DNA from: Escherichia phage PHB12
Sequence record: MK524178.1
Reading direction: 5' to 3' (one strand)
Length of the DNA: 64,000 bases
Position numbers and translations under genes: made by a program. The notes beneath the pieces are model-generated. The model was given only the letters and a program-made list of their open reading frames with translations. It did not search any database and had not been told where the DNA came from. This document shows, one piece after another, positions 28,767-29,717 of this stretch. Position 1 is the first letter of the stretch. Every line of letters starts with the position of its first letter.

Positions 28767-28937
28767 TTTGTTTACTCCTCTGTAGTTGATAAGTCTATAG
28801 TATCATGTCCTTAGAAGAAGTAAACATCTTTATGAAATATTTTTATGCCCTAGATACCAAAAGGCCCCAACCATAAGGAAGGGGCTAAGCCTTGCGGCAA
28901 CCTTGTCGGGGTTCCACCTGCTAAGGCAAGTGTTTGT

Positions 28938-29095
28938 ACGAAACGCCGGGATTCGAACCCGGTTATTAAGCAGTTGACGCTACTCAATATTTTTAAAAGG
29001 CCATATCTCGACCATATCCGAACGTTCCGTCAAAAACGCTACTCGGCTTATAGCAAAGATATTTCCTCGAATCGATAATTCGGTGCGCCGTTTCT
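28938..29095 (-). ncRNA. candidate stable RNA with a tRNA-like T-arm and acceptor 3' end (possibly related to T4 species 1/2 RNAs)
   Basis: Minus-sense CCGGGTTCGAATCCCGG followed by CGTTTCG, with complementary GAAACG about 150 nt upstream; too long for a tRNA; no long ORF. Confidence 0.3.
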
Positions 29096-29197
29096 GCTGT
29101 GATGTAAGGGGATATTAACGAATCATAAAGATTTATTAAGACCAGTCCTTACACAGGGAACATCAGTCCGACGACTTGCCGGTAGCGACCCGGCTTC

Positions 29198-29542
29198 TTA
29201 TTTTGGCATATTATCAATTTGCTCTCGACGCCGACGCCATAGATTAATCGCTTCATTAACACATTCGGCGTTTAGTATATGACGGCAATAATATAATGAT
29301 TCGCGTTTCTGAAACCGATGTTGCAATGGGATTTCGTTTAAAAGGTCTTTGCGATCAAAGTATTCAAAACTAGTTAACCCGGAACGGTTTTTAATGAACT
29401 TCCAATGACCAAATTCATTTTGGAAATAAACGTAATCAGCGTGTTGATATAACGAATTAATCAACCGGTCGGAAATAACTGTATCCTGTTCGTTAAAATA
29501 AAACGTTAAATCATGAACTACCAGATAAACATTGCCTTTCAT
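29198..29542 (-). CDS. hypothetical protein (about 114 aa from the internal ATG) between the tRNAs and the RNA region
   Basis: ORF track frame; the alternative-start extension would overlap tRNA-Arg, so the internal ATG (MKGNVYLVVHD) is preferred. Confidence 0.45.
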   Translation of the reverse strand: MKGNVYLVVHDLTFYFNEQDTVISDRLINSLYQHADYVYFQNEFGHWKFIKNRSGLTSFEYFDRKDLLNEIPLQHRFQKRESLYYCRHILNAECVNEAINLWRRRREQIDNMPK

Positions 29543-29560
29543 ATTTTCCTCACTTAAAAT

Positions 29561-29637
29561 TGGTCGAGACAGAAGGATTCTAACCTTCAACCTACGGATT
29601 AGAAGTCCGTTGCTCTATACAATTGAGCTATGCCTCG
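29561..29637 (-). tRNA. tRNA-Arg (anticodon TCT), CCA encoded
   Basis: Hand-folded cloverleaf: acceptor CGAGGCA/TGTCTCG, D-stem GCTC/GAGC, anticodon stem ACGGA/TCCGT with loop CTTCTAA, T-arm GAAGG-TTAGAAT-CCTTC. Confidence 0.75.
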
Positions 29638-29643
29638 AATATA

Positions 29644-29717
29644 TGACCCAGACCAGATTCGAACTGGTAACCTTTCCCTTATGAGGGGACTGCTGCTAAC
29701 CGTTGAGCTACAGGGCC
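29644..29717 (-). tRNA. tRNA with anticodon CAT (Ile-lysidine or Met type)
   Basis: T-arm ACCAG-TTCGAAT-CTGGT and anticodon loop CTCATAA; acceptor and D stems each carry one mismatch in my hand fold. Confidence 0.5.

Follow-up and report, generated by a model that had tools for sequence, protein, structure and literature searches.

Comparative structure of the T4 species 1 RNA homolog at the distal end of the transfer RNA operon in Escherichia phage PHB12

The species 1 and species 2 RNAs of bacteriophage T4, encoded by rnaC and rnaD, are small stable RNAs that have been known and sequenced since the 1970s. The T4 transfer RNA (tRNA) operon in which they lie has been described as one primary transcript of ~1.75 kb that ends after the species I RNA (PMC2330249), and RNAC has been detected by Northern blot in T4 infection, both RNAC and RNAD being classed as late RNAs (PMC9697503). 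They are old orphan RNAs that are found in hundreds of therapeutic-type coliphages, and Rfam 15 contains no family for either. Here we describe their counterparts in a 64,000-nucleotide (nt) stretch of Escherichia phage PHB12 (MK524178.1), referred to below as the window, which comes from a T4-type myovirus of the RB69 kind. Its minus-strand interval 28857-29717 contains the distal part of the tRNA operon, which is of the T4 type. The presence of T4 rnaC and rnaD orthologs and of an RB69-type set of two tRNAs was known already; what is new here is a predicted cloverleaf for rnaC, derived by comparison of 39 homologs and containing a covarying loop-loop helix. We regard the identity and architecture of the rnaD/rnaC region as practically certain and hold with high confidence the explanation as a whole, which comprises the operon end, the two orthologs, the tRNA-like cloverleaf, and the inferred processing, lock, and mimic role.

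A preliminary description of this DNA had placed a single tRNA-like element of ~155 nt in a stretch poor in open reading frames (ORFs) and had offered, as its first option, homology to the species 1 or species 2 RNA of T4, which proves correct. Such a stretch does exist but contains a pair of RNAs instead of a single one; the element resembling a tRNA is likewise real and, by homology to T4, measures 139 nt. Both T4 RNAs could be aligned to the window, in the same order and with the same hairpins.

29082..29201, minus strand: rnaD, homolog of the T4 species 2 RNA, 102 of 121 positions identical (84%)
28937..29075, minus strand: rnaC, homolog of the T4 species 1 RNA, 139 nt, 135 of 139 positions identical

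On sequence grounds, rnaC of the window is the ortholog of the T4 species 1 RNA, and rnaD is that of the species 2 RNA. T4 rnaC (NC_000866, 70908-71046) likewise follows rnaD, precedes the same hairpin of 7 base pairs (bp) and the same terminator-type hairpin, and has the same predicted fold. It differs from the window copy by four substitutions, three at paired positions where pairing is kept and one in a bulge. A covariance model built from six homologs (R1) scores window rnaC at 170 bits. The order of elements along the minus strand is tRNA(CAU), tRNA-Arg(UCU), an ORF of 114 amino acids (aa), rnaD, rnaC, the 7-bp hairpin, and a terminator-type hairpin.

Homologs of rnaC were taken from GenBank phage records and from collections of viral, metagenome, and genome sequences that were scanned with patterns, and candidates were confirmed by the covariance model. 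The 39 distinct homologs come from ~11 genera: Tequatrovirus, Mosigvirus, Gaprivervirus, Dhakavirus, Karamvirus, Kanagawavirus, Tegunavirus, Moonvirus, Gelderlandvirus, and Marfavirus, plus the type represented by Edwardsiella phage PEi20. BLAST detects rnaC in some 770-810 phage records out of 50,697. A tighter pattern scan, checked with the model, found no rnaC in bacterial genome contigs, the only matches being contigs of T4-type phages. A loose scan of viral contigs returned ~120 loci, among which rnaC was present only in two new ones (L094 and L109) and one known one (L009); the others appear to be chance matches.

The structure predicted for rnaC from these homologs is a tRNA-shaped cloverleaf, a four-way junction whose parts are as follows.

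29068..29074 and 28939..28945, minus strand: rnaC acceptor strands, CGAUUCG and CGUUUCG, 7 bp including a tandem U.U
28998..29067, minus strand: rnaC arm 1, a hairpin of ~70 nt in the D-arm position, with UUGACG (29028-29033) in its apical loop
28964..28989, minus strand: rnaC arm 2, a 10-bp hairpin in the anticodon-arm position, with the 6-nt loop CGUCAA (28974-28979)
28946..28962, minus strand: rnaC T arm, CCGGG-UUCGAAU-CCCGG, 5 bp with a canonical loop, 1 nt after arm 2

The T arm and an acceptor strand paired to a distant 5' strand, which the preliminary description had noticed, are thus both present. The acceptor stem joins nt 2-8 with nt 131-137, its two strands being 123 nt apart in the RNA; the tandem U.U is conserved except in Tegunavirus, which has U-A and C-G instead, and a pair next to it is A-U in 18 sequences and G-C in 21. 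Arm 1 has undergone compensatory change in 20 of its 22 upper pairs, its three basal pairs being invariant, and in the clades of Kosakonia, Edwardsiella, Citrobacter, Salmonella, and Klebsiella phages its stem is largely rewritten with the pairing kept. An A/U-rich linker of ~10 nt leads to arm 2, in which 8 of 10 stem pairs covary. Two of the five T-arm pairs covary as well, one from G-C to U-A (16 sequences) and one from C-G to U-A (2 sequences).

Single-sequence and comparative predictions agree on this fold. The minimum free energy (MFE) of rnaC is -48.3 kcal/mol (z = -4.4), none of 200 shuffled sequences folding as well, and RNAalifold returns the cloverleaf from six sequences. Over the 39 homologs, 92.9% of the alignment cells at paired positions hold standard pairs; in slid controls, with partners displaced by one to three columns, the figure is 39-47%. 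Compensatory double changes occur in 33 of 53 pairs, and none of 500 shuffles of the 39 sequences reaches the observed values. An earlier set of 27 sequences and the set of 39 gave similar figures, with paired cells at 92-93%, slid controls at 38-47%, and 29-33 compensatory pairs.

These data bear on the suggestion that the stretch is a decayed tRNA remnant, an option that the preliminary description had left standing, or that it encodes small proteins. Two small ORFs do overlap the RNAs (45 aa at 28850-28987 and 37 aa at 29149-29262), and a "hypothetical protein" has been placed there in many phage records; most GenBank records either leave the rnaC/rnaD region without annotation or cover it in this way. 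However, RNA pairing is maintained by compensatory changes in 39 distinct homologs, and substitutions preserve the pairing and follow no reading-frame pattern, with insertions and deletions falling in loops and in the linker. The T4 homologs, moreover, are known RNAs, annotated as misc_RNA in the T4 record and, for RNAC, seen by Northern blot (PMC9697503). Strong structural selection on rnaC over ~11 genera speaks against a tRNA remnant, and we consider both versions of this explanation extremely unlikely. A stable transcript, the lack of which the preliminary description would have taken as counter-evidence, is documented for the homolog by the Northern blot, in T4 only.

The tRNA-like half of rnaC may extend to a tertiary contact. 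Four sequences of the Kanagawavirus "mime" type (L003, positions 1504-1656, L012, L029, and L187) have the T loop UGCAUGC in place of UUCGAAU, and solely in these four the basal bulge of arm 1 is changed from UGG to UCG. The joint change of bulge and T loop, seen in one lineage, is only suggestive of a tRNA-like elbow, that is, a contact resembling that between D loop and T loop. We also considered whether the T loop (UCGAAUC) might pair with the 5' strand (GAUUCGA) and rejected the idea: such pairing follows from the palindrome UUCGAA, and neither Tegunavirus nor the clade with the UGCAUGC loop retains it.

The acceptor stem and T arm, together with an invariant U-N-C-A tail that is an encoded U-CCA in the Marfavirus-like phages, could also be those of an aminoacylated RNA, either a decoding long-arm tRNA of the Lys or Sec type or a non-decoding charged RNA resembling transfer-messenger RNA (tmRNA). 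A 94-nt "tRNA-Lys(ttt)" is called by ARAGORN inside rnaC of Escherichia phage 55, and a permissive Rfam scan of 28700-29800 found nothing new except a weak tRNA-Sec match in window rnaC, which scores 16.6 bits where the gathering score is 47. Against a charged RNA, ARAGORN made no call on 28937-29075, nor was the "tRNA-Lys" called in T4 or RB69; the same interval has no match to the Rfam tRNA family RF00005, and neither ARAGORN nor Rfam found a tmRNA in the window. The helix on which both the "tRNA-Lys" call and the tRNA-Sec match depend, formed by CGGAACG of arm 1 and the acceptor 3' strand, shows no compensatory change and has one position unpaired in 20 of the 39 sequences, so that we rejected it as an alternative acceptor stem. 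The arm in the anticodon position has a loop of 6 nt rather than 7, which is fully paired to arm 1 in the predicted structure, and the mature RNA is 139 nt by the T4 annotation rather than 94. A charged RNA is accordingly very improbable.

The call in phage 55, a Mosigvirus, is found both with ARAGORN and in GenBank (L210, positions 471-564, corresponding to 28937-29030 of the window). Over the stretch matched by the covariance model, its rnaC differs from that of the window at five positions, of which four are substitutions and one is an A missing from the linker. Because its acceptor helix does not covary and is disrupted in half the sequences, this tRNA-Lys is treated as a false call.

Arm 1 carries in its apical loop a sequence complementary to the loop of arm 2. 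The 6 bp between UUGACG and CGUCAA can form in all 39 sequences, with a duplex energy of -6.7 to -9.4 kcal/mol, and the motif is kept even in clades in which the stem of arm 1 is almost wholly rewritten. Double changes that preserve pairing occur at two different positions, giving UUGAUG/CAUCAA in two Tegunavirus sequences and UUGGCG/CGCCAA in six Marfavirus-like ones, and no one-sided change was found in the 39 sequences. The covariation makes it probable that arms 1 and 2 are joined by a kissing-loop lock. Such a helix would close the two arms into a compact ring in which no anticodon is available.

In several genera, rnaC is found within tRNA arrays. In Cronobacter phage Pet-CM3-4, Enterobacter phages fGh-Ecl01 and Entb_43, and Salmonella phage Melville, it is flanked by tRNA-Trp and tRNA-Gly at distances of ~6-8 nt, and in Yersinia phage TG1 it stands directly before tRNA-Trp. 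This tRNA-like spacing leaves rnaC no room for a promoter or terminator of its own. A T4 late-promoter motif (TATAAATA) was not found near the RNAs, the nearest on the minus strand being 3 kb upstream. Immediately 5' of the acceptor stem stands U or A, and all 39 sequences have a 3' tail of the form U-N-C-A. Given its placement in arrays, its acceptor/T-arm half, the flanking base, and the tail, it is quite likely that rnaC is excised by the tRNA-processing enzymes of the host. The tRNAs, rnaD, and rnaC would be transcribed as one precursor, from which rnaC would be cut as tRNAs are, by RNase P at the 5' end and by endo- and exonucleolytic trimming at the 3' end; the tRNA-like top half would also give the RNA stability. 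Steps involving RNase P, RNase E, and RNase III are reportedly described for species 1 maturation in the classical T4 literature, which is also said to record T and pseudouridine in the species 1 RNA.

Two further hairpins lie downstream of rnaC, in agreement with the terminator-like hairpin and further inverted repeats mentioned in the preliminary description.

28915..28932, minus strand: 7-bp hairpin, CACUUGC-CUUA-GCAGGUG, 4 nt past rnaC, invariant in 11 relatives
28857..28886, minus strand: terminator-type hairpin, GCCCC..GGGGC followed by CUUUUGG, MFE -14.7 kcal/mol

The first is probably part of the 3' processing region. The second is conserved among relatives, with one compensatory change from C-G to G-C, and is the putative end of the tRNA/rnaD/rnaC transcription unit. 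It is weaker than its T4 counterpart: in T4 the 10-bp stem is perfect, the loop is GAAA, and UUUUU follows, whereas the hairpin of the window has two U.U mismatches, a UUAU loop, and four U's.

In T4, RB69, and the window, rnaD and rnaC lie at the 3' end of the operon beside the conserved hairpin and terminator, an arrangement that could mean that they are only cis-acting 3'-end modules, protecting the upstream tRNAs or setting the transcript end. This is improbable in view of the positions of rnaC elsewhere, in the middle of the array in Karamvirus and Gelderlandvirus and directly before tRNA-Trp in Tegunavirus. Conversely, Dhakavirus phage JS10 has retained the hairpins, including that of 7 bp, and the terminator without rnaC. 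The strong structural selection on the inner arms and loops of rnaC would, in addition, be needless for a 3' cap.

The second RNA, rnaD, lies directly upstream of rnaC with a 6-nt spacer, as in T4. It consists of a 7-nt 5' tail, the hairpin P1, and a long irregular hairpin, variable at its tip, which a 7-bp stem closes; it has an MFE of -36.5 kcal/mol (z = -2.8).

29178-29194, minus strand: rnaD hairpin P1, GCCGG-GUCGCUA-CCGGC, 5 bp, loop GUCGCUA invariant

T4 rnaD (NC_000866, 71053-71171) shares with the window copy the 5' 47 nt and the 3' 25 nt, the middle of the rod having diverged, and has the same fold of 5' hairpin and closed rod. It follows tRNA-Arg by 1 nt in T4, whereas in the window, RB69, RB68, and T2-type phages the 114-aa ORF intervenes. 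RNAalifold left the middle of rnaD unresolved because the tip is not alignable; folds of single sequences were used instead, and five variants share one architecture. Among close relatives (the window, L007, L015, and L018), the tip (29103-29153 in the window) occurs in three unrelated, self-complementary versions. With one fold and three unrelated tips, the rod seems to be kept as a shape in which the tip is exchangeable, and the versions look like the result of cassette exchange rather than of gradual drift. On this view, rnaD would be a rod-shaped RNA in its own right, with only its tip open to exchange and its ends conserved. It is confined to Tequatrovirus, Mosigvirus, Gaprivervirus, and Dhakavirus phages. 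At the homologous site, rnaC or rnaD is annotated in RB68, RB59, RB5, and T2L, the RB68 record having both. Marfavirus-like Klebsiella phages (L151, positions ~636-694, L152, L094, and L109) have in place of rnaD a conserved G+C-rich element of ~60 nt, AAGGGGUGG...GGCCCACC, between tRNA(CAU) and rnaC. A terminator scan gave a single site near the RNAs; it lies on the plus strand and is the 5' hairpin of rnaD (29178-29194) in opposite-strand reading, followed by a T-rich run. In the T4-like phage BW1, one identical single-nucleotide polymorphism (SNP) in rnaD was the only change shared by all three lines evolved on E. coli ECOR34, which gained virulence on that strain (PMC12685909). Among published data, this is the best clue to a function.

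The alteration of virulence on one host by a convergent rnaD SNP (PMC12685909) is what might be expected if rnaC and rnaD were trans-acting regulators that base-pair with host or phage mRNAs, and "small regulatory RNAs" is the wording used for them in PMC9697503. The rnaC linker, UUUUAAAAAU, is conserved, A/U-rich, and single-stranded, and rnaD also has conserved single-stranded stretches. The two most conserved loops of rnaC, however, are predicted to pair with each other and so are not free seeds. A BLAST comparison of rnaD plus rnaC with 5,426 E. coli genomes, aimed at a host origin or a host target, found neither similarity nor complementarity, although short seeds would escape such a search. 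Pairing between the two RNAs was rejected, the rnaC-rnaD duplex at -56.5 being no better than shuffled sequences at -49.8 +/- 5.3. As of 2010, no trans-acting small RNA of T4 had been functionally characterized (PMC3014915). Regulation by base pairing in trans is unlikely on this evidence.

Since no anticodon would be available in the locked structure, rnaC may be a non-decoding tRNA mimic or decoy rather than a tRNA or a classical antisense RNA, an assignment that we favor over its rivals but make tentatively. Its top half would engage a host factor that recognizes tRNA, and the kissing lock would keep it out of translation. If this is so, rnaC resembles tRNA to processing, CCA-end, or elbow-binding factors and yet cannot decode. 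Whether it belongs to an undescribed class of phage tRNA mimic, one that in the conflict between phage and host would be the decoy or sponge of a tRNA-binding enzyme of the host or of a tRNA-targeting defense, with rnaD as a partner in which point mutations alter host range, is more doubtful and is offered as speculation. The acceptor stem and T arm serve as a handle for processing enzymes and for stability in the tRNA-like domain of tmRNA, in the Y RNA-like YrlA of bacteria, in mascRNA of eukaryotes, and in engineered tRNA scaffolds, none of which decodes. Unlike these, rnaC is a four-way junction whose acceptor stem is made by the ends of the RNA and whose other two arms are predicted to kiss; we know of no description of this topology in those families. 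The only match to YrlA (RF02553) scored 17.8 bits, the gathering score being 69, and lies on the tRNAs (29612-29672), not on rnaC. The comparative structure provides elements that can be mutated, namely the acceptor/T-arm half, the U-N-C-A tail, the loop-loop helix, and the placement in tRNA arrays, and would permit the building of a proper RNA family for annotation.

Several points weigh against the interpretation of rnaC as a processed, locked mimic of tRNA at an operon end. The deletions covering the rnaC and rnaD genes are reportedly viable in the classical T4 literature, and in JS10 (L007, positions 1499-1706) rnaC is cleanly absent, rnaD being joined straight to the 7-bp hairpin and terminator; together these imply that any function is conditional. 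Because Dhakavirus LHE83 (L155) has both RNAs and JS10 has rnaD only, rnaC appears to have been lost within this genus. The replacement of the T loop in the Kanagawavirus "mime" type means that rnaC can do without the canonical one. For the kissing helix there are only two independent double changes, and the loops may instead pair between two molecules to form a dimer, with which the covariation agrees equally well. The ends of both RNAs in the window are carried over from the T4 annotation, and the 5' end of rnaD may differ from that in T4 because it follows an ORF and not tRNA-Arg. The hairpin at 28857-28886, with only four U's, was not flagged by a consensus terminator scan, owing to the two U.U mismatches in its stem. 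No partner protein or target was identified in this analysis, and the function of rnaC and rnaD is still termed unknown in PMC3014915, PMC9697503, and PMC12685909.

The operon has the layout of RB69 (NC_004928), in which tRNA.3, tRNA.2, ORF151c, tRNA(CAU), tRNA-Arg(UCU), and ORF150c are followed by an unannotated gap containing rnaD and rnaC. The 361-nt ORF-poor stretch with these two RNAs is 96.8% identical to that of RB69, and the interval 28700-29800 is ~97% identical to Mosigvirus and Tequatrovirus phages such as Shigella phage JK45 and Escherichia phage APCEc01. In these closest relatives, the 1.1-kb interval is matched in three pieces over ~2.2 kb, indicating that they carry ~1.1 kb of extra ORFs that the window lacks. 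The extra ORFs apparently sit between the terminator and the next gene; downstream of the terminator, the genes of the window differ from those of its closest relatives.

Upstream of the RNAs are the two tRNA genes.

29644..29717, minus strand: tRNA(CAU), no encoded CCA, found by ARAGORN and by Rfam (tRNA, 52.4 bits)
29561..29637, minus strand: tRNA-Arg(UCU), CCA encoded, reads AGA, found by ARAGORN and by Rfam (tRNA, 71.1 bits)

The preliminary description had folded only these two, a tRNA-Arg with anticodon TCT and encoded CCA and a tRNA with anticodon CAT, and had noted that T4 encodes eight. The count holds, ARAGORN and Rfam (at the gathering score) each finding exactly two tRNAs in the 64 kb and the Rfam scan giving no further standard tRNA. 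The reduced set is the known condition of RB69, which also has two tRNAs only (t001 and t002) in the same layout. The encoded CCA of tRNA-Arg appears as TGG on the plus strand at 29561-29563. The gene is the same, and in the same place, as that of RB69; it gave no alignment with T4's own tRNA-Arg. The other tRNA, tRNA(CAU), is identical at 72 of 74 positions to the T4 gene annotated as tRNA-Ile (isoleucyl-tRNA) in NC_000866 and, as the ortholog of that gene, is probably of the AUA-reading Ile2 type rather than a tRNA-Met. The Met label given by ARAGORN and in most records is based on the anticodon alone. AGA and AUA are the rarest codons of E. coli, which is the usual explanation for keeping these two tRNAs. 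They are used at 8.1 (AGA) and 12.6 (AUA) per 1000 codons in the long ORFs of the window, and the retained tRNAs would read codons that are common in this AT-rich genome.

One protein-coding gene separates the tRNAs from the stable RNAs.

29198..29542, minus strand: 114-aa ORF between tRNA-Arg and rnaD, with GAGGA in front

Its product has no Pfam family and matches phrog_3355 (PHROG 3355) with E = 1.8e-49; the equivalents in other phages are RB69ORF150c and RB68_139. The stop codon of this ORF overlaps the mapped 5' end of rnaD.

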